17,104 nucleotides of DNA from a virus (lineage: Duplodnaviria; Heunggongvirae; Uroviricota; Caudoviricetes), in the IMG/VR virus record IMGVR_UViG_2740892269_000010. The stretch is one strand, 5' to 3'. A program made the translations under genes and the position numbers. Position 1 is the stretch's first letter. Every line of letters begins with the position of its first letter. The notes beneath the pieces are model-generated. The model worked only from the letters and a program-made list of their open reading frames with translations. It was not told where the DNA came from and ran no database searches. Of this stretch, positions 1-17,104 are shown in pieces.

Positions 1-53
1 CTGGGGAATATCTCCCCGGCAGCCTTCAGGGAAAAATATCATCAGATGGCTGC

Positions 54-227
54 TTAAAAAAAGAACAAATGGTAGTGTCCGCTATTGCCAGTACACCTCA
101 GGGTATAAGGGGTTATGGCCACCGGACTACCAAACGGCTGCCAGCCCTCTTTCAGTTTATGTGTCAGCTTTTCCGCAAGATCTGACGGCGGCGCCGCCCT
201 GACAACATCATAGTGTTTAAATGCCAT
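54..227 (-). CDS. Hypothetical small prophage protein (about 57 aa from the internal ATG; the ORF extends to 242)
   Basis: Six-frame ORF 54..242 on the minus strand. The internal ATG at 227-225 is preceded by GGAAAG about 5 nt upstream (reverse complement of 233-238), a plausible Shine-Dalgarno. No motif recognised. Lies in the prophage late-transcription direction. Confidence 0.3.
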   Translation of the reverse strand: MAFKHYDVVRAAPPSDLAEKLTHKLKEGWQPFGSPVAITPYTLRCTGNSGHYHLFFF

Positions 228-2077: not shown

Positions 2078-2932
2078 TTATGACGAATTTACCACAGATT
2101 CCGGAAAAATCAACCTAGTTACCTTTTTTAACTGCCGCTCAGCCCATGCTTCTTCAATATCAAACCGAGTCACCAGCGCATCATAGAATTTCTTAACTGT
2201 TTTTTCCCATGACGCGCGTGTTATCTGGTTTGTCACCTCGCATATAGCATTAAATGCCTCCGTTGATGGTAGTCTTTCATAGCCACGACCACCACAACGC
2301 TGGCAGTCTCTGATAACAGGCATACCACGTTTTACCGACTCTTCACGATGAATGGCGACACCACGCCCACGGCAATCCTTACAGGCGGTGGAAACCTCAC
2401 CCTTTCCGCCACACTCCGGACAGGCAACTTTTACCACCTCCCTGACTTTTTTCCATTCTTCCCAGTAAGACGGATACACACCTTTCGTACACTTTGCCCA
2501 TACCGGCGGCTTACCATCCGGATACTGGACCTTGTTTGTAAAAACTACGCTTTCAATAAATTTTTCCCCATAGCAACAAGGGCACTGCTTTTTACTCGCT
2601 GCGCTGCGGGCATAATCCTCAAAAGCGTACGAAGCCATAATGCGCATCACTACCGGTTTTATTTCTGCCGGAAGTTTTCTCAACGCCGCCACACGATCGC
2701 ACCGACTGAGTGCATAATCTGCCAGTAATTCTGTTGCCCGCGCCCTGTCATTCATACTGATGCCCATTTTCCCCAGGAACGCAGAAAACCCCATCTCAGC
2801 CCGATTCTGTGTCATGCCCTGCGCGGCCATCACATCAGTGATACTCAGCGCATCTTTTGACGTTGAGGCCGATGCATCGGTCAGGCAAGGGGATTTTGGG
2901 GAGTAGTATTTCGGTAAATCTTCCAGTTTCAT
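2078..2932 (-). CDS. Putative lambdoid late-gene antiterminator (Q-like), 284 aa, with DnaJ-type CxxCxGxG zinc-finger repeats
   Basis: Position is diagnostic: immediately downstream of rusA with a 4-nt overlap (2929-2932) and immediately upstream of the tRNA island, as in lambdoid late-regulatory regions. The protein contains CPECGGKG, CKDCRGRG and CQRCGGRG repeats plus CPCCYGEK. The family assignment is from context, not a recognised alignment. Confidence 0.55.
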   Translation of the reverse strand: MKLEDLPKYYSPKSPCLTDASASTSKDALSITDVMAAQGMTQNRAEMGFSAFLGKMGISMNDRARATELLADYALSRCDRVAALRKLPAEIKPVVMRIMASYAFEDYARSAASKKQCPCCYGEKFIESVVFTNKVQYPDGKPPVWAKCTKGVYPSYWEEWKKVREVVKVACPECGGKGEVSTACKDCRGRGVAIHREESVKRGMPVIRDCQRCGGRGYERLPSTEAFNAICEVTNQITRASWEKTVKKFYDALVTRFDIEEAWAERQLKKVTRLIFPESVVNSS

Positions 2933-3303
2933 TTTTTGACCTGCTCTTCATGCATTATGGGGTAAATCTTCACCCCCAGACGTCCACCAGATACTGGCTG
3001 ACCACGAACGATATTGATTTCATCAAACTGCTCATCGTCCATTAACACTCCCGCATGTGTCAGTGCATCCAGTGGTGCTTTCAGGATATTGTCCAGGTCA
3101 CGACGGCGCTTATCCGGTGGCTCTGCAATAATCTTTATCGCCAGTCTTCCGGACAGGCTTAATTTCAGTCGCTGCTGACGGACAATAAGCGCCACATCCC
3201 GGCGATAACGCTCACCGGCTTTTGATACAAAATATGTGTTGTCACGACGTCGCCAGTAAGTATTCACCGTCGGCGGATAAGGTAAAATAAACTCATGGCG
3301 CAT
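2929..3303 (-). CDS. rusA: RusA-family Holliday junction resolvase (crossover junction endodeoxyribonuclease), 124 aa
   Basis: The protein carries DKRRRDLDN followed by LDAL and an acidic DDEQ cluster, matching the conserved RusA core (K-12 RusA has DRRRRDLDN as I recall it). Typical nin-region position upstream of Q. Confidence 0.85.
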   Translation of the reverse strand: MRHEFILPYPPTVNTYWRRRDNTYFVSKAGERYRRDVALIVRQQRLKLSLSGRLAIKIIAEPPDKRRRDLDNILKAPLDALTHAGVLMDDEQFDEINIVRGQPVSGGRLGVKIYPIMHEEQVKK

Positions 3304-3545: not shown

Positions 3546-3771
3546 TGTCTGGTTGTTCAAAAGAAACGCTCCATCTTACTGCTGTCAGTTCGTTTATTAC
3601 TGTATCTGCGCGGATTGCCGGGCTTCATGGGAGTGGAAAGCACCCGTGCACTTTCCTGGTCCACAGGCAGAAAATGTCCGTAGACTGGCCCCCTGAATCT
3701 CCAGACAACCAGTATCACTTAAATAAGTGATAGTCTTAATACTAGTTTTTAGACTAGTCATTGGAGTACAG

Positions 3772-4137
3772 ATGATTGATGTCTTAGGGCCGGAGAAACG
3801 CAGACGGCGTACCACACAGGAAAAGATCGCAATTGTGTCAACGCCACGATGTTTGACCGTTATTTGCCATTTTCATGCCCGCTAAATACTTTCGTTAGCC
3901 AGCCAGTTATTTCTCTGGCGTAAGCAATACCAGGAAGGAAGTCTTACTGCTGTCGCCGCCGGAGAACAGGTTGTTCCTGCCTCTGAACTTGCTGCCGCCA
4001 TGAAGCAGATTAAAGAACTCCAGCGCCTGCTCGGCAAGAAAACGATGGAAAATGAACTCCTCAAAGAAGCCGTTGAATATGGACGGGCAAAAAAGTGGAT
4101 AGCGCACGCGCCCTTATTGCCCGGGGATGGGGAGTAA
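3772..4137 (+). pseudogene. insC: IS2 insC (orfA) disrupted by a premature stop at 3883-3885 inside a 60-bp non-homologous block
   Basis: Same start context as copy 2 insC. From 3837 the sequence diverges for exactly 60 nt and carries an in-frame TAA. Homology and frame resume at 3897. Confidence 0.8.
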
Positions 4138-5000
4138 GCTTAGTCAGCCGTTGTCTCCGGGTGTCGCGTGCGCAGTTGCACGTCATTCTCAGACGAACCG
4201 ATGACTGGATGGATGGCCGCCGCAGTCGTCACACTGATGATACGGATGTGCTTCTCCGTATACACCATGTTATCGGAGAGCTGCCCACGTATGGTTATCG
4301 TCGGGTATGGGCGCTGCTTCGCAGACAGGCAGAACTTGATGGTATGCCTGCGATCAATGCCAAACGTGTTTACCGGATCATGCGCCAGAATGCGCTGTTG
4401 CTTGAGCGAAAACCTGCTGTACCGCCATCGAAACGGGCACATACAGGCAGAGTGGCCGTGAAAGAAAGCAATCAGCGATGGTGCTCTGACGGGTTCGAGT
4501 TCTGCTGTGATAACGGAGAGAGACTGCGTGTCACGTTCGCGCTGGACTGCTGTGATCGTGAGGCACTGCACTGGGCGGTGACTACCGGCGGCTTCAACAG
4601 TGAAACAGTACAGGACGTCATGCTGGGAGCGGTGGAACGCCGCTTCGGCAACGATCTTCCGTCGTCTCCAGTGGAGTGGCTGACGGATAATGGTTCATGC
4701 TACCGGGCTAATGAAACACGCCAGTTCGCCCGGATGTTGGGACTTGAACCGAAGAACACGGCGGTGCGGAGTCCGGAGAGTAACGGAATAGCAGAGAGCT
4801 TCGTGAAAACGATAAAGCGTGACTACATCAGTATCATGCCCAAACCAGACGGGTTAACGGCAGCAAAGAACCTTGCAGAGGCGTTCGAGCATTATAACGA
4901 ATGGCATCCGCATAGTGCGCTGGGTTATCGCTCGCCACGGGAATATCTGCGGCAGCGGGCTTGTAATGGGTTAAGTGATAACAGATGTCTGGAAATATAG
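4095..5000 (+). CDS. insD: IS2 transposase OrfB (InsD) reading frame, 301 aa, intact
   Basis: Identical 301-aa translation to copy 2. Normally expressed as an OrfAB fusion by -1 frameshift at the A6G motif (4089-4095); that cannot yield a normal fusion here because orfA is disrupted. Confidence 0.85.
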
Positions 5001-5011
5001 GGGCAAATCCA
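4971..5011 (+). repeat. IS2 right terminal inverted repeat (IRR) of copy 1
   Basis: 41-nt terminus ending in ...ggggcaaatcca. A perfect inverted match to 5248-5288. Confidence 0.9.
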
Positions 5012-5247
5012 NNNNNNNNNNNNNNNNNNNNNNNNNNNNNNNNNNNNNNNNNNNNNNNNNNNNNNNNNNNNNNNNNNNNNNNNNNNNNNNNNNNNNNNNN
5101 NNNNNNNNNNNNNNNNNNNNNNNNNNNNNNNNNNNNNNNNNNNNNNNNNNNNNNNNNNNNNNNNNNNNNNNNNNNNNNNNNNNNNNNNNNNNNNNNNNNN
5201 NNNNNNNNNNNNNNNNNNNNNNNNNNNNNNNNNNNNNNNNNNNNNNN

Positions 5248-5288
5248 TGGATTTGCCCCTATATTTCCAGACATCTGTTATCACTTAA
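5248..5288 (+). repeat. Right-end-type (IRR-like) terminus at the left end of IS2 copy 2
   Basis: tggatttgcccctatatttccagacatctgttatcacttaa is the exact reverse complement of the right ends at 4971-5011 and 6537-6577. From 5289 it continues as normal IS2 left-end interior (ataagtgatagtc...). Confidence 0.85.
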
Positions 5289-5337
5289 ATAAGTGATAGT
5301 CTTAATACTAGTTTTTAGACTAGTCATTGGAGTACAG

Positions 5338-5703
5338 ATGATTGATGTCTTAGGGCCGGAGAAACGCAGACGGCGTACCACACAGGAAAAGATCGCAATT
5401 GTTCAGCAGAGCTTTGAACCGGGGATGACGGTCTCCCTCGTTGCCCGGCAACATGGTGTAGCAGCCAGCCAGTTATTTCTCTGGCGTAAGCAATACCAGG
5501 AAGGAAGTCTTACTGCTGTCGCCGCCGGAGAACAGGTTGTTCCTGCCTCTGAACTTGCTGCCGCCATGAAGCAGATTAAAGAACTCCAGCGCCTGCTCGG
5601 CAAGAAAACGATGGAAAATGAACTCCTCAAAGAAGCCGTTGAATATGGACGGGCAAAAAAGTGGATAGCGCACGCGCCCTTATTGCCCGGGGATGGGGAG
5701 TAA
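5338..5703 (+). CDS. insC: IS2 OrfA (InsC), 121 aa, DNA-binding transposition protein
   Basis: ATG at 5338 ([26 protein letters not shown]...); the ORF track extends upstream to 5293. Ends at 5703, overlapping insD. Confidence 0.9.
5655..5661 (+). other. A6G slippery heptamer for programmed -1 frameshifting between insC and insD
   Basis: aaaaaag at the insC/insD overlap; the same motif is at 4089-4095 in copy 1. Frameshift-dependent OrfAB expression is established for IS2 and the IS3 family. Confidence 0.7.
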
Positions 5704-6566
5704 GCTTAGTCAGCCGTTGTCTCCGGGTGTCGCGTGCGCAGTTGCACGTCATTCTCAGACGAACCGATGACTGGATGGATGGCCGCCGCAGTCGTCACAC
5801 TGATGATACGGATGTGCTTCTCCGTATACACCATGTTATCGGAGAGCTGCCCACGTATGGTTATCGTCGGGTATGGGCGCTGCTTCGCAGACAGGCAGAA
5901 CTTGATGGTATGCCTGCGATCAATGCCAAACGTGTTTACCGGATCATGCGCCAGAATGCGCTGTTGCTTGAGCGAAAACCTGCTGTACCGCCATCGAAAC
6001 GGGCACATACAGGCAGAGTGGCCGTGAAAGAAAGCAATCAGCGATGGTGCTCTGACGGGTTCGAGTTCTGCTGTGATAACGGAGAGAGACTGCGTGTCAC
6101 GTTCGCGCTGGACTGCTGTGATCGTGAGGCACTGCACTGGGCGGTGACTACCGGCGGCTTCAACAGTGAAACAGTACAGGACGTCATGCTGGGAGCGGTG
6201 GAACGCCGCTTCGGCAACGATCTTCCGTCGTCTCCAGTGGAGTGGCTGACGGATAATGGTTCATGCTACCGGGCTAATGAAACACGCCAGTTCGCCCGGA
6301 TGTTGGGACTTGAACCGAAGAACACGGCGGTGCGGAGTCCGGAGAGTAACGGAATAGCAGAGAGCTTCGTGAAAACGATAAAGCGTGACTACATCAGTAT
6401 CATGCCCAAACCAGACGGGTTAACGGCAGCAAAGAACCTTGCAGAGGCGTTCGAGCATTATAACGAATGGCATCCGCATAGTGCGCTGGGTTATCGCTCG
6501 CCACGGGAATATCTGCGGCAGCGGGCTTGTAATGGGTTAAGTGATAACAGATGTCTGGAAATATAG
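5661..6566 (+). CDS. insD: IS2 transposase OrfB (InsD), 301 aa
   Basis: ORF 5661..6566, identical translation to the copy 1 frame. Frame is -1 relative to insC. Confidence 0.9.
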
Positions 6567-6577
6567 GGGCAAATCCA

Positions 6578-6733
6578 GGTACTGCCGAAAATATTCAGAT
6601 AGAGCTGAGGGATGACCAGGATGCTGCGTTAAAAAATGGCGATAGCAAAACGGTTATTGTTGATGAGATCACTCGTAATGCACAGTTTCCACTTAAGGCA
6701 AGAGCTATCACGGTGAATGGAAACGCAAGCTAG
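6578..6733 (+). pseudogene. ydeR: 3' remnant (51 codons) of a fimbrial minor subunit gene truncated by IS2; ydeR-like by gene order
   Basis: In-frame translation from the IS2 boundary reads GTAENIQIELRDDQDAALKNGDSKTVIVDEITRNAQFPLKARAITVNGNAS, a pilin-type C-terminus. It sits directly upstream of the FimH-like ydeQ, the position of ydeR in K-12. No start codon or 5' part is present. Confidence 0.5.
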
Positions 6734-6836
6734 GGAACGATCGAGGCGCTAATCAATGTGATCTACACCTGGCAATAACGTCGATTCGATTTTCTTAGCC
6801 TTCTTTTTAAATCAATTTTTAACCTTAGGATATATC

Positions 6837-7751
6837 ATGGGTAAAACAATCAGTATAAAGGTCCTGTTCGGTATTTATCTTCTATTAATGGCAGGCAAAG
6901 TTTTTGCCTTCAGTTGTAATGTCGATGGCGGGTCAAGTATTGGAGCAGGTACAACCTCTGTTTATGTTAATCTCGACCCTGTAATACAGCCGGGCCAGAA
7001 TCTGGTTGTAGACTTGTCTCAGCATATAAGTTGCTGGAATGATTACGGCGGCTGGTACGACACTGATCATATAAACCTGGTACAAGGCTCAGCTTTCGCA
7101 GGCTCCCTACAGTCATATAAAGGATCGCTGTACTGGAATAATGTGACCTACCCCTTCCCGTTGACGACAAATACCAACGTATTGGATATTGGTGATAAGA
7201 CACCGATGCCATTACCGTTAAAACTCTATATTACCCCAGTTGGGGCGGCCGGTGGAGTTGTCATAAAAGCGGGGGAAGTCATTGCCCGTATTCATATGTA
7301 TAAAATTGCAACATTAGGAAGCGGAAATCCGCGTAATTTTACGTGGAATATTATTTCAAATAACAGTGTTGTTATGCCAACAGGCGGCTGCACCGTTGAT
7401 AGTCGTAATGTCACTGTGGATCTCCCGGACTTTCCTGGAAGCGCAGAAATACCCCTTGGCGTATATTGCTCAAGCGAACAAAAGCTCTCATTTTATCTTT
7501 CGGGTGCCACCACTGACAGTAGCCGACAAGTGTTTGCTAACACAGCACCTGATGCAACAAAAGCATCGGGAGTGGGTGTCACTCTAATGCGTAATGGAAA
7601 AATACTGGCTACGGGAGAAAATGTCTCCCTGGGGACAGTAAATAAAAGCAAAGTACCTCTGGGTTTAAGCGCAACCTATGGACAAACAGGAAACAAGGTT
7701 TCAGCCGGAACCGTCCAGTCAGTCATTGGTGTCACTTTTATCTATGAATAA
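6837..7751 (+). CDS. ydeQ: FimH-family fimbrial tip adhesin homologue, 304 aa
   Basis: Signal-peptide-like N-terminus. Strong collinear similarity to FimH ([51 protein letters not shown]). RBS agga at 6827-6830. Confidence 0.85.
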
Positions 7752-8084: not shown

Positions 8085-10448
8085 ATGAAGAAAAAAATTG
8101 AATCCTACCAGGGTGCTGCAGGTGGTTGGGGTGCTGTTAAATCCGTAGCGAATGCAGTACGTAAGCAGATGGATATACGCCATGATGTTATTGCCATGTT
8201 TGACATGAATAAGCCAGAGGGCTTTGACTGTCCGGGTTGTGCATGGCCAGATCCTAAGCACAGTGCGTCATTCGACATTTGTGAAAACGGCGCAAAAGCA
8301 ATCGCCTGGGAAGTCACGGATAAGCAGGTAAATGCCTCTTTCTTTGCTGAGAATACGGTTCAATCATTACTTACCTGGGGAGATCACGAGCTTGAGGCTG
8401 CGGGGCGTCTCACTCAGCCTTTGAAATATGATGCCGTCAGCGACTGTTACAAGCCATTAAGCTGGCAACAAGCTTTCGACGAAATTGGCGCACGCCTTCA
8501 AAGCTATAGTGATCCCAATCAGGTTGAATTCTATACTTCGGGCCGCACTTCCAATGAAGCTGCCTTTCTTTATCAGCTTTTTGCCCGTGAATACGGGAGC
8601 AATAACTTTCCCGACTGCTCCAACATGTGCCATGAACCGACAAGCGTGGGTTTGGCAGCGAGTATCGGTGTAGGTAAAGGGACCGTGTTGCTGGAAGACT
8701 TTGAGAAGTGCGATTTAGTCATTTGCATTGGGCATAACCCTGGTACAAACCACCCTCGCATGCTGACTTCGTTGCGCGCTTTAGTGAAACGGGGAGCGAA
8801 AATGATCGCCATCAATCCTCTACAGGAACGTGGCCTGGAGCGATTTACCGCACCGCAAAACCCGTTTGAAATGCTGACGAACTCTGAGACTCAGTTGGCC
8901 AGTGCCTACTACAACGTGCGCATTGGTGGCGATATGGCGTTGCTCAAGGGGATGATGCGCCTGTTAATTGAGCGCGATGATGCTGCAAGTGCCGCAGGTC
9001 GGCCCTCATTGCTTGATGACGAATTTATTCAAACGCATACCGTCGGCTTTGACGAGCTACGCCGTGACGTTCTCAATTCCGAGTGGAAAGATATCGAACG
9101 TATTTCTGGACTAAGTCAGACACAAATCGCCGAACTGGCTGACGCATATGCCGCTGCCGATCGCACCATTATCTGTTACGGAATGGGGATCACTCAGCAC
9201 GAACATGGTACCCAGAATGTACAGCAACTGGTCAATCTGCTGTTGATGAAAGGTAACATTGGCAAGCCTGGTGCGGGTATCTGCCCACTACGAGGTCACT
9301 CTAATGTACAGGGCGACCGAACCGTCGGTATCACCGAGAAACCGTCTGCAGAGTTTCTGGCTCGCCTGGGTGAGCGCTATGGCTTCACCCCACCTCATGC
9401 ACCTGGACATGCTGCAATTGCCAGCATGCAAGCAATATGCACGGGGCAGGCTCGAGCATTGATCTGCATGGGGGGCAACTTTGCACTGGCAATGCCAGAT
9501 CGGGAAGCGAGCGCTGTACCGTTAACGCAATTAGATTTGGCGGTACACGTAGCCACTAAGCTTAACCGCTCTCATCTGCTGACCGCACGGCATAGCTATA
9601 TTCTGCCGGTTCTGGGGCGTAGCGAGATTGACATGCAAAAAAGCGGTGCGCAGGCGGTAACCGTTGAGGATTCAATGTNNNNNNNNNNNNNNNNNNNNNN
9701 NNNNNNNNNNNNNNNNNNNNNNNNNNNNNNNNNNNNNNNNNNNNNNNNNNNNNNNNNNNNNNNNNNNNNNNNNNNNNNNNNNNNNNNNNNNNNNNNNNNN
9801 NNNNNNNNNNNNNNNNNNNNNNNNNNNNNNNNNNNNNNNNNNNNNNNNNNNNNNNNNNNNNNNNNNNNNNNNNNNNNNNNNNNNNNNNNNNNNNNNNNNN
9901 NNNNNNNNNNNNNNNNNNNNNNNNNNNNGTTACCAGAGTTCGCCGACTATAACCAGCGCATCCGACATCCTGGAGGTTTTCACCTGATAAATGCAGCTGC
10001 TGAAAGGCGCTGGATGACGCCGTCAGGTAAGGCTAATTTCATTACCAGCAAAGGGCTGTTAGAAGATCCCTCTTCAGCGTTTAACAGTAAGCTGGTCATG
10101 GCGACAGTACGTAGCCACGATCAGTACAACACGACGATTTATGGTATGGATGATCGCTATCGAGGGGTATTCGGTCAACGAGATGTGGTCTTTATGAGTG
10201 CTAAACAAGCTAAAATTTGCCGTGTAAAAAACGGCGAAAGAGTTAATCTTATTGCGCTTACGCCAGACGGTAAGCGCAGCTCACGCCGCATGGATAGATT
10301 AAAAGTGGTCATTTACCCTATGGCTGACCGCTCACTGGTGACCTATTTTCCAGAATCGAATCACATGCTAACTCTTGATAACCACGATCCATTAAGTGGC
10401 ATTCCTGGTTATAAAAGTATTCCGGTTGAATTAGAACCATCAAATTAA
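8085..10448 (+). CDS. ydeP: YdeP, molybdopterin oxidoreductase family (formate dehydrogenase-like) acid-resistance protein
   Basis: 787-codon ORF; the middle is N-masked (9679-9928) but the frame is preserved. N-terminal Cys cluster CPGCAW...C. AGGA RBS 7 nt before the ATG at 8085; the in-frame ATG at 8169 (MDIRH...) would give the 759-aa form I recall for K-12. Confidence 0.9.
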
Positions 10449-10967: not shown

Positions 10968-11735
10968 ATGTCGCTCGTTTGTTCTGTTATATTTATTCAT
11001 CATGCCTTCAACGCTAACATTTTAGATAAAGATTACGCCTTCTCTGACGGCGAGATCCTGATGGTAGATAACGCTGTTCGTACGCATTTTGAACCTTATG
11101 AGCGGCATTTTAAAGAGATCGGATTTACTGAAAATACCATTAAAAAATATCTACAATGCACTAACATNNNNNNNNNNNNNNNNNNNNNNNNNNNNNNNNN
11201 NNNNNNNNNNNNNNNNNNNNNNNNNNNNNNNNNNNNNNNNNNNNNNNNNNNNNNNNNNNNNNNNNNNNNNNNNNNNNNNNNNNNNNNNNNNNNNNNNNNN
11301 NNNNNNNNNNNNNNNNNNNNNNNNNNNNNNNNNNNNNNNNNNNNNNNNNNNNNNNNNNNNNNNNNNNNNNNNNNNNNNNNNNNNNNNNNNNNNNNNNNNN
11401 NNNNNNNNNNNNNNNNNNNNCCATGGAAGCTGAAAGATATTTGTGACTGCCTGTACATCAGTGAAAGCCTGTTGAAGAAAAAACTAAAGCAAGAGCAAAC
11501 GACATTCTCACAGATTCTATTAGATGCCAGAATGCAGCACGCAAAAAATTTGATACGCGTAGAAGGTTCAGTCAATAAAATTGCCGAACAATGTGGTTAT
11601 GCCAGTACATCTTATTTTATTTATGCGTTCCGCAAACATTTCGGCAACAGTCCGAAGAGAGTTTCTAAGGAGTACCGTTGTCAAAGTCACATGGGTATGA
11701 ATACGGGCAACACGATGAGTGCTTTAGCTATTTGA
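10968..11735 (+). CDS. ydeO: YdeO, AraC-family acid-resistance transcriptional activator
   Basis: RBS aaggag at 10957-10962. N-terminus MSLVCSVIFIHHAFNANILDKDYAF and a C-terminal AraC HTH (KIAEQCGYASTSYFIYAFRKHFGNSPKRV). The middle is N-masked (11168-11420). Confidence 0.9.
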   Translation: MSLVCSVIFIHHAFNANILDKDYAFSDGEILMVDNAVRTHFEPYERHFKEIGFTENTIKKYLQCTNXXXXXXXXXXXXXXXXXXXXXXXXXXXXXXXXXXXXXXXXXXXXXXXXXXXXXXXXXXXXXXXXXXXXXXXXXXXXXXXXXXXXXPWKLKDICDCLYISESLLKKKLKQEQTTFSQILLDARMQHAKNLIRVEGSVNKIAEQCGYASTSYFIYAFRKHFGNSPKRVSKEYRCQSHMGMNTGNTMSALAI

Positions 11736-12135: not shown

Positions 12136-13818
12136 ATGAAGTCTGCATTAAAGAAAAGTGTCGTAAGTACCTCGATATCTTTGATACTGGCATCTGGTAT
12201 GGCTGCATTTGCTGCTCATGCGGCAGATGATGTAAAGCTGAAAGCAACCAAAACAAACGTTGCTTTCTCAGATTTTACGCCGACTGAATACAGTACCAAA
12301 GGAAAGCCAAATATTATCGTACTAACCATGGATGATCTTGGTTATGGACAACTTCCTTTTGATAAGGGATCTTTTGACCCAAAAACAATGGAAAATCGTG
12401 AAGTTGTCGATACCTACAAAATAGGGATAGATAAAGCCATTGAAGCTGCACAAAAATCAACGCCGACGCTCCTTTCATTAATGGATGAAGGCGTACGTTT
12501 TACTAACGGCTATGTGGCACACGGTGTTTCCGGCCCCTCCCGTGCCGCAATAATGACCGGTCGAGCTCCCGCCCGCTTTGGTGTCTATTCCAATACCGAT
12601 GCTCAGGATGGTATTCCGCTAACAGAAACTTTCTTGCCTGAATTATTCCAGAATCATGGTTATTACACTGCAGCAGTAGGTAAATGGCACTTGTCAAAAA
12701 TCAGTAATGTGCCGGTACCGGAAGATAAACAAACGCGTGACTATCATGACAACTTCACCACATTTTCTGCGGAAGAATGGCAACCTCAAAACCGTGGCTT
12801 TGATTACTTTATGGGATTCCACGCTGCAGGAACGGCATATTACAACTCCCCTTCACTGTTCAAAAATCGTGAACGTGTCCCCGCAAAAGGTTATATCAGC
12901 GATCAGTTAACCGATGAGGCAATTGGCGTTGTTGATCGTGCCAAAACACTTGACCAGCCTTTTATGCTTTACCTGGCTTATAATGCTCCGCACCTACCAA
13001 ATGATAATCCTGCACCGGATCAATATCAGAAGCAATTTAATACCGGTAGTCAAACAGCAGATAACTACTACGCTTCCGTTTATTCTGTTGATCAGGGTGT
13101 AAAACGCATTCTCGAACAACTGAAGAAAAACGGACAGTATGACAATACAATTATTCTCTTTACCTCCGATAATGGTGCGGTTATCGATGGTCCTCTGCCG
13201 CTGAACGGGGCGCAAAAAGGCTATAAGAGTCAGACCTATCCTGGCGGTACTCACACCCCAATGTTTATGTGGTGGAAAGGAAAACTTCAACCCGGTAATT
13301 ATGACAAGCTGATTTCCGCAATGGATTTCTACCCAACAGCTCTTGATGCAGCCGATATCAGCATTCCAAAAGACCTTAAGCTGGATGGTGTTTCCTTGCT
13401 GCCCTGGTTGCAAGATAAGAAACAAGGCGCGCCACATAAAAATCTGACCTGGATAACCTCTTATTCTCACTGGTTTGATGAGGAAAATATTCCATTCTGG
13501 GATAATTACCACAAATTTGTTCGCCATCAGTCAGACGATTACCCGCATAACCCCAACACTGAGGACTTAAGCCAATTCTCTTATACGGTGAGAAATAACG
13601 ATTATTCGCTTGTCTATACAGTAGAAAACAATCAGTTAGGTCTCTACAAACTGACGGATCTACAGCAAAAAGATAACCTTGCCGCCGCCAATCCGCAGGT
13701 CGTTAAAGAGATGCAAGGCGTGGTAAGAGAGTTTATCGACAGCAGCCAGCCACCGCTTAGCGAGGTAAATCAGGAGAAGTTTAACAATATCAAGAAAGCA
13801 CTAAGCGAAGCGAAATAA
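12136..13818 (+). CDS. ydeN: YdeN, predicted periplasmic Ser-type sulfatase, 560 aa
   Basis: RBS aggaa. Sec-type signal peptide ending AHAADD. Sulfatase signature S-G-P-S-R at 12529-12543 with Ser at the formylglycine position. Confidence 0.85.
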   Translation: MKSALKKSVVSTSISLILASGMAAFAAHAADDVKLKATKTNVAFSDFTPTEYSTKGKPNIIVLTMDDLGYGQLPFDKGSFDPKTMENREVVDTYKIGIDKAIEAAQKSTPTLLSLMDEGVRFTNGYVAHGVSGPSRAAIMTGRAPARFGVYSNTDAQDGIPLTETFLPELFQNHGYYTAAVGKWHLSKISNVPVPEDKQTRDYHDNFTTFSAEEWQPQNRGFDYFMGFHAAGTAYYNSPSLFKNRERVPAKGYISDQLTDEAIGVVDRAKTLDQPFMLYLAYNAPHLPNDNPAPDQYQKQFNTGSQTADNYYASVYSVDQGVKRILEQLKKNGQYDNTIILFTSDNGAVIDGPLPLNGAQKGYKSQTYPGGTHTPMFMWWKGKLQPGNYDKLISAMDFYPTALDAADISIPKDLKLDGVSLLPWLQDKKQGAPHKNLTWITSYSHWFDEENIPFWDNYHKFVRHQSDDYPHNPNTEDLSQFSYTVRNNDYSLVYTVENNQLGLYKLTDLQQKDNLAAANPQVVKEMQGVVREFIDSSQPPLSEVNQEKFNNIKKALSEAK

Positions 13819-17009: not shown

Positions 17010-17040
17010 CAACAATAAAAGCCCTGCTGTACGGAGTAAT

Positions 17041-17074
17041 GCCAGTCAGTTAAGCAACTGACTGGCTCTTTTTC
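17041..17074 (+). terminator. Rho-independent terminator after yddA
   Basis: Stem gccagtcag / ctgactggc with loop ttaagcaa, followed by tctttttc. Confidence 0.7.
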
Positions 17075-17104
17075 GGGGCTGTGGGGTATTTCCAGGGCCT
17101 CTCC

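Follow-up and report, generated by a model that had tools for sequence, protein, structure and literature searches.

Two copies of the insertion sequence (IS) IS2 stand between prophage DNA and a truncated fimbrial operon in IMGVR_UViG_2740892269_000010, a stretch of 17,104 nucleotides (nt) which is here called the window. This arrangement raises the question of whether phage and fimbrial genes became neighbours through an IS2-mediated rearrangement. An earlier note, made from the letters of the window alone, had described the two IS2 elements with outer flanks GTCCG (3676-3680) and GGTAC (6578-6582). Both elements and both flanks were found as described. The same note had taken the inequality of the 5-nt flanks as an argument for rearrangement, and this argument did not hold, because the left flank belongs to one IS2 insertion and the right flank to another. 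The window is probably best explained as two IS2 insertions that arose independently in a Shigella sonnei-type genome and were juxtaposed across a gap, the fimbrial operon having been decapitated earlier by an IS-associated deletion.

IS2 copy 1 is 1331 base pairs (bp) long (3681-5011, plus strand). It begins with TAGACTGG... and ends with ...GGGGCAAATCCA, and it has the length of IS2 together with the canonical 42-bp left inverted repeat (IRL, TAGACTGGCCCCCTGAATCTCC...) and 41-bp right inverted repeat (IRR, ...GGAAATATAGGGGCAAATCCA), the repeat lengths being those reported for IS2 (PMC3299598). Its orfB and A6G site (4089) are intact; orfA is destroyed, terminating after 37 codons within a patch of IS21-like DNA, and the copy does not carry an intact pair of orfA and orfB. 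IS2 copy 2 (1330 bp; 5248-6577, plus strand) contains an intact orfA (5338-5703), the A6G frameshift site (5655), and an intact orfB (5661-6566). Using NCBIfam, its two products were identified as IS2 TnpA (NF006928, 276 bits against a cutoff of 229) and IS2 TnpB (NF006918, 728 bits against a cutoff of 597). No difference separates the copies between IS2 position 217 and the right end (3897-5011 in copy 1). Outside its left end, copy 2 has one mismatch to the ydeR-adjacent IS2 of CP023645.1. No locus-specific single-nucleotide polymorphisms which would mark copy 2 as a collapsed consensus were found in the ydeR-adjacent IS2, two apparent mismatches being alignment edges at an IS21 junction. 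Between the copies lies a run of 236 N (5012-5247), whose edges match two IS2 termini to the base. This run hides both inner flanks, right of copy 1 and left of copy 2, so that the continuity of the IS2 array is not observable. A rearrangement joint would consist of a single IS2 or a contiguous array with flanks from different loci; here contiguity is broken by N, and each outer flank is the one that its own IS2 normally has in relatives.

Copy 1 was found to interrupt a prophage gene for a DnaB-like replicative helicase, of which a 3' remnant of 40 codons and the stop is visible (3557-3680, minus strand). The translation, GHFLPVDQESARVLSTPMKPGNPRRYSNKRTDSSKMERFF (GHFLPVDQ...KMERFF), agrees residue for residue with the C-terminus of the replicative DNA helicase annotated in Escherichia coli FDAARGOS_944 (L001 of the 29 loci fetched), and an intact 463-amino-acid (aa) DnaB_C protein is present in L023 and L028. 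A 26-codon remnant had previously been placed at 3597-3680 on the minus strand. It was correct that a phage gene is cut at the IS2 boundary, but the reading frame was not that of the helicase. The GTCCG at 3676-3680 is probably the left copy of a 5-bp target duplication, and in relatives a second GTCCG follows the right end of the IS2. In all ten long S. sonnei-type loci (10/10), GTCCG flanks the helicase IS2 on both sides, the right end reading ...CAAATCCA, then GTCCG, then TTATAAAAACG.... The empty helicase site, ...AAAATGTCCGTTATAAAAACG... with a single GTCCG, was found in three genomes, namely FDAARGOS_944 (L001/L027), L023, and L028. In the window the left GTCCG of copy 1 is visible and its right flank lies under N. 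The helicase of the relatives is interrupted rather than ended, as 42 bp more of the gene follow the IS2 before IS600-like sequence begins. In S. sonnei 75/02 (L015, reverse complement 13434-13520), the sequence after these 42 bp looks like an IS600 left end, and this putative IS600 is itself interrupted by IS1. In L015 the nested IS insertions lie within about 5 kb.

Copy 2 is the corresponding insertion in ydeR, which encodes a FimG-like minor pilin. To its right the sequence enters ydeR at codon 102, and codons 102-167 of 167 remain (6578-6778, plus strand; native stop at 6776-6778). The GGTAC at 6578-6582 probably represents the right half of the 5-bp target duplication made by this insertion. 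E. coli 5283 has an IS2 at the identical ydeR base, likewise oriented and flanked on either side by GGTAC, and its operon is otherwise complete (fimA-like subunit, chaperone, usher, ydeS, ydeR, and ydeQ). Most E. coli, for example L003, have the empty site AATGAAGGTACTGCCG. In the window, GGTAC can be seen to the right of copy 2, whose left flank lies under N; in S. sonnei-type relatives the left GGTAC partner is gone. The earlier note had named matching 5-bp duplications, seen with the N block resolved, as the observation that would speak against a rearrangement. Such duplications are found in the relatives, with GTCCG in 10 of 10 loci and GGTAC in E. coli 5283.

Both loci can be followed in S. 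sonnei-type genomes, to which the window is 99.9-100% identical on both sides. A 72-aa open reading frame (ORF) that spans the phage/IS2 junction was located in three short contigs and five chromosomes, the latter including CP019689.1, which is S. sonnei 75/02 (PMC5447701), and CP022672.1, which is S. sonnei 866 (PMC6128377). The 60-aa ORF across the IS2/ydeR junction (6551-6733) occurs in 2444 collection blocks. Two further junction ORFs were not on record. The phage flank joined to IS2 was found in no E. coli complete genome searched, and a 40-mer across the phage/IS2 junction was absent from GTDB representatives. In S. sonnei 75/02 the helicase IS2 ends at 4,041,831 and the remnant of the ydeR IS2 begins at 4,462,442, which places them 420.6 kb apart, in the same orientation and colinear. 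In CP049169.1 the two IS2 sites are likewise colinear and 361 kb apart. These distances come from the two complete genomes in which both loci could be placed. With the loci of relatives colinear and 361-421 kb apart, a junction between prophage and operon is therefore not shown. Of the IS2-mediated deletion or recombination that had been proposed for this place, an IS-associated deletion that decapitated the operon stands, and the prophage-to-operon junction is not supported.

Further analysis of the ydeR locus showed where the deletion lies. What lies to the left of the IS cluster in the complete genomes is hipBA with the last ~100 bp of a fimA-like gene, and not phage DNA. After the fimA-like remnant come an inverted IS2 right-end fragment, then IS600 and IS21-like fragments, and finally a complete IS2 or an IS2 remnant of 276 bp. 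Compared with E. coli 5283, the complete relatives are missing ~4.47 kb, comprising the chaperone, the usher, ydeS, and codons 1-101 of ydeR, and IS2/IS600/IS21 debris is found instead. The decapitation of the fimbrial operon is thus real and lineage-wide; it results from an IS-associated deletion of about 4.5 kb, and it is not a fusion to the prophage. In the complete genome L011 (CP049167.1, 1-9751), the dmsC-dmsD-clcB-mlc-ynfLM region lies to the left of the ydeR cluster, and IS2 positions 1-702 and an IS21-like element come next.

The description of the right side as a pilin C-terminus that begins in mid-gene, followed by ydeQ-ydeP-safA-ydeO, was confirmed, and the full order after copy 2 is the ydeR remnant, ydeQ, ydeP, safA, ydeO, ydeN, ydeM, and yddA, with the tip of an IS4 element at the end. 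The absence of chaperone, usher, and upstream subunits was also confirmed for the window, where only ydeQ and ydeR codons 102-167 are present. The ydeR remnant contains a premature TAG at 6731-6733 (CAG to TAG, Q153*), which is present in all S. sonnei-type loci fetched and is consistent with a long-standing pseudogene. Position 6733, previously given as the end of the feature, corresponds to this premature stop inside the remnant and not to the native end. ydeQ (6837-7751, plus strand) encodes an intact FimH-like adhesin of 304 aa with the PF09160 FimH_man-bind domain. A functional chaperone-usher operon comprises a major subunit, a chaperone, and an usher with the tip subunits, and this set is not present in the window. 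ydeQ is intact, yet it is without the promoter-proximal part of the operon, a chaperone or an usher. The ydeQ gene and the 3' third of ydeR are 97-99.8% identical to the E. coli ydeQRST, FimA-like chaperone-usher operon and have the same position relative to ydeP. The window differs from this operon in that it has no chaperone, usher, ydeS, or 5' part of ydeR, and in the added nonsense codon of the ydeR remnant. The complete operon is present in E. coli 5283 and a K-12-like partial operon in SHP24. In L005 and L010 (11100-12446), ydeQ is shortened to 274 aa by an IS4 insertion, whereas it is intact in the window.

The N runs bear on the question of how the two insertions came to stand side by side. 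Besides the run between the IS2 copies, the window contains runs of 251 N (1787-2037), 250 N (9679-9928), and 253 N (11168-11420), located at arbitrary places in a transfer RNA (tRNA) cluster, ydeP, and ydeO, respectively. In relatives the sequence that they replace measures 263, 166, and 247 bp. These three runs rule out the possibility that the length of an N run gives the length of the hidden sequence, and therefore the 236 N say nothing of the spacing of the IS2 copies. Because N counts differ from the bp replaced, ORF lengths across N runs are artefactual. ydeP reads 787 aa instead of 759 aa and ydeO 255 aa instead of 253 aa. The window begins inside an IS600 end (1-100, plus strand), the last 100 bp of the element, with 100% identity to IS600 ends in L004-L016 and to that of the IS600 annotated in L001. 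It finishes inside an IS4-family terminus (17023-17104), which matches the IS4 ends in L005, L008, L009, and L010, located beside genes for 442-448-aa Nterm_IS4/DDE_Tnp_1 proteins. These ends suggest that the window represents an entire contig or scaffold bounded by repeats. In draft genomes, scaffold joins induced by repeats and collapsed copies of IS elements are familiar, and the window resembles them in having gap edges at IS termini and its ends in IS600 and IS4. It differs in that its other three N runs sit in unique genes, and the likeness is not proof.

The internal structure of copy 1 bears on the same point. A 61-nt segment (3836-3896, minus strand) is the istB-proximal terminus of an IS21-like element, with a 100% match to the ends at genes annotated as 'AAA family ATPase' or IstB, and it replaces IS2 positions 156-216 in exact register. 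The same terminus opens an insert of ~2.06 kb at this IS2 position in 10 of 10 complete relatives, and the window does not contain the other 2017 bp of it. Moreover, the complete relatives with the insert are without IS2 positions ~156-200. The junction by which copy 1 returns from IS21 to IS2 (...CTTTCGTTA followed by GCCAGCCAG...) was seen in none of the ten (0/10). Draft contigs of relatives diverge at the patch point, two of them taking plain IS2 and one taking IS21. The patch was also compared with an inversion, reversal, complement, or shuffle of IS2, none of which fit, and it is instead real IS21-like terminal DNA. To our knowledge, neither transposition nor homologous recombination yields a swap of 61 nt that preserves length. 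The patch looks like a mosaic of two assembly paths, and in this respect copy 1 resembles a repeat-induced join, in which two graph branches are combined where draft contigs of the relatives stop or diverge.

From this, the following sequence of events may be proposed. The window would be part of an IS-laden S. sonnei-type chromosome, in which copy 1 entered the DnaB-like helicase gene of a lambdoid prophage and duplicated GTCCG, and copy 2 entered the minor-pilin gene ydeR and duplicated GGTAC. An IS-associated deletion or rearrangement in the ancestor common to the lineage would later have removed the chaperone, usher, ydeS, and 5' part of ydeR, leaving ydeQ without assembly machinery. The join seen in the window would then most likely be a repeat-induced scaffold join, or another loss of sequence, between loci hundreds of kb apart. 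If the two loci are separate, the right end of copy 1 should continue into GTCCGTTATAAAAACGCCGG, with GTCCGTTATAAAAACG expected after copy 1, and copy 2 should be entered from ...CATAATATCTAAACTATC. A biological junction appears less likely than a scaffold join or other sequence loss. We infer that the window strain shares the long-range order of its relatives and that assembly produced both the join and the in-register IS21 patch.

Several points weigh against this explanation. The N runs may be masks and not gaps left by an assembler, given that the three others are located in unique genes; if they are masks, the coincidence of the 236-N run with two IS2 termini is left unexplained. No assembler step has been demonstrated to yield the 61-nt patch or the unusual left end of copy 2, which is of the IRR type. 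The inner flanks of the window are hidden, and the strain could therefore differ from its relatives. There are also real rearrangements at this IS cluster, as the left neighbour in CP049167.1 is the dmsC-ynfM region instead of hipBA.

The alternative which survives best is that the junction is real, a strain-specific IS-mediated rearrangement having set the prophage locus beside the ydeR locus with two IS2 copies a few hundred bp apart. This is considered rather improbable. Possible routes include successive inversions, translocation, or recombination among IS2, IS600, and IS21 copies, and pieces of all three kinds occur at both loci and could recombine. The left neighbour of the ydeR cluster varies among complete S. 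sonnei genomes (L011 compared with L004-L010), and the non-canonical left end of copy 2 indicates something unusual at or near this copy. Moreover, IS elements of Shigella are known to cause rearrangements (PMC7373316). Against a real junction stands the colinearity of the loci, 361-421 kb apart in the two complete genomes holding both; from this it follows that a single inversion cannot give the arrangement of the window. With a simple deletion, about 8% of the chromosome would be lost. Among the long loci fetched, none showed the arrangement. The in-register IS21 patch, which no known recombination or transposition reaction makes, casts doubt on the fidelity of this stretch. Recombination between IS600 copies of the two loci was tried as a specific route and rejected, as it predicts that pieces of IS600 and IS21 separate the IS2 copies and that copy 2 starts with an IRL or an IS21 junction, which is at odds with the window.

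It was also considered that the window contains a single hybrid IS2. Recombination between the helicase IS2 and the ydeR IS2, as direct repeats, would have deleted the intervening DNA, and the one IS2 left between GTCCG and GGTAC would have been written twice by the assembly. Unequal outer flanks with IS2 between them would be explained in this way, as would the identity of the copies from position 217 onward. The copies differ, though, at their left ends and in the IS21 patch, and they are not one sequence written twice. Such a recombination would also need the loss of 361-421 kb, very probably including essential genes. A hybrid of this kind is accordingly very improbable. It is hardly credible that the two direct, closely spaced copies are an active tandem dimer or transposition intermediate whose abutted ends drive further transposition, since the reactive junctions of IS3-family elements such as IS2 have IRR and IRL 1-2 bp apart (PMC3299598), whereas here the ends are split by the N run, the downstream end is IRR-type and not IRL, and copy 1 is without OrfA and OrfAB.

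Both copies are non-canonical, and the unusual feature of copy 2 is its left end (5248-5288, plus strand). These 41 nt are a perfect inverted copy, that is, the exact reverse complement, of the 41-bp IRR; they differ from IRL at 13 positions, and the 42-bp IRL is not present. The segment is joined to the IS2 interior within a shared TATCACTTAA. An IRR-type left end was absent from 30,090 IS2 places in 5,426 E. coli genomes, from at least 5,000 plasmids including Shigella plasmids, and from GTDB representatives and JGI metagenomes. It was also seen in none of the 17 IS2 left ends in the fetched loci (0/17). In CP023645.1 (L004), the complete ydeR-adjacent IS2 is preceded upstream by an inverted IS2 right-end fragment, and direct TATCACTTAA 10-mers, one in the fragment and one in IRL, are 2,626 bp apart. 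A modelled 2,626-bp deletion between these repeats reproduces positions 5248-6678 of the window with one mismatch. It is conceivable, if quite doubtful, that copy 2 is a genuine natural IS2 derivative with IRR-type ends on both sides, produced by a 2.6-kb deletion between the 10-mers of the inverted fragment and its own IRL.

In IS2, IRR acts as the donor end and IRL as the recipient end, and IRL has a promoter function (PMC3299598). If the IRR-type end is real, copy 2 may show altered transposition behaviour and would be the equivalent in nature of an engineered end swap. In that case the flank hidden under N should be ...ATCTAAACTATC, on the hip/fimA side, and phage DNA would again not be the neighbour. 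The sequence from the fimA-like remnant into IS2 orfA would then read TGGATTTGCC...CTGTTATCACTTAAATAAGTGATAG. This end, if real, is the only point of modest curiosity at the locus.

Compared with simple insertions of IS2, a member of the IS3 family, both copies have the expected length, the A6G frameshift site, and a canonical IRR, and in relatives both sites carry 5-bp direct duplications. They differ from such insertions in the 61-nt IS21-like DNA and the lack of OrfA in copy 1, in the IRR-type left end of copy 2, and in that one flank per copy is visible in the window. Expansion of IS1, IS2, IS4, IS600, and IS911 in Shigella is known to interrupt genes and to cause deletions and rearrangements (Hawkey et al., 2020; PMC7373316). 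The IS2, IS600, IS4, and IS21-like elements described here interrupt or delete prophage and fimbrial genes in the same way, the truncated ydeR junction is common to thousands of assemblies, and nothing essential differs. Whichever reading of the junction holds, the case is one of the already known IS-driven decay and rearrangement of Shigella. It adds one more fimbrial operon, of the ydeQRST type, whose inactivation extends across the lineage of S. sonnei-type genomes, and a replication gene of a prophage struck by nested IS2, IS21, and IS600 insertions, both of which fit the established decay. It also calls for caution, as unequal flanks around an IS pair interrupted by N are uninformative on rearrangement, and IS-rich Shigella drafts readily give apparent junctions between distant loci.

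The DNA to the left of copy 1 is a lambdoid prophage remnant. It had been described as a late-regulatory region of a prophage, which was borne out. A Q-type antitermination protein of 284 aa (2078-2932, minus strand) is annotated as 'antitermination protein' in FDAARGOS_944, and PF03589 Antiterm is found on a gene of identical length in L014-L016. A RusA Holliday-junction resolvase of 124 aa (2929-3303, minus strand) was recognized by PF05866 and NF007305 (E = 8e-23). An 85-aa phage ORF (3303-3560, minus strand) has no family assignment, and the exact protein occurs in 2758 collection blocks. The remnant finishes with the 3' end of the helicase gene.

Other observations concern the surroundings of these genes. 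A homologue of IraM, an anti-adaptor which inhibits RssB, is encoded on the prophage remnant at 488-823 (NF007393, 162 bits against a cutoff of 121). No tRNA was found in the window by ARAGORN, because the prophage tRNA cluster is hidden under the first N run. A tRNA-Arg (TCT) and a tRNA with a CAT anticodon lie under or at the edge of this run (1787-2037), whose counterpart in L015 is at 8127-8379 of the reverse complement. IpaH-type LRR/NEL genes near the phage locus fit Shigella. At the other side of the window yddA is intact, whereas in L008 and L009 (about 19650) it is shortened to 324 aa, with a gene for an IS630-like (DDE_3) transposase beside the break in L008.

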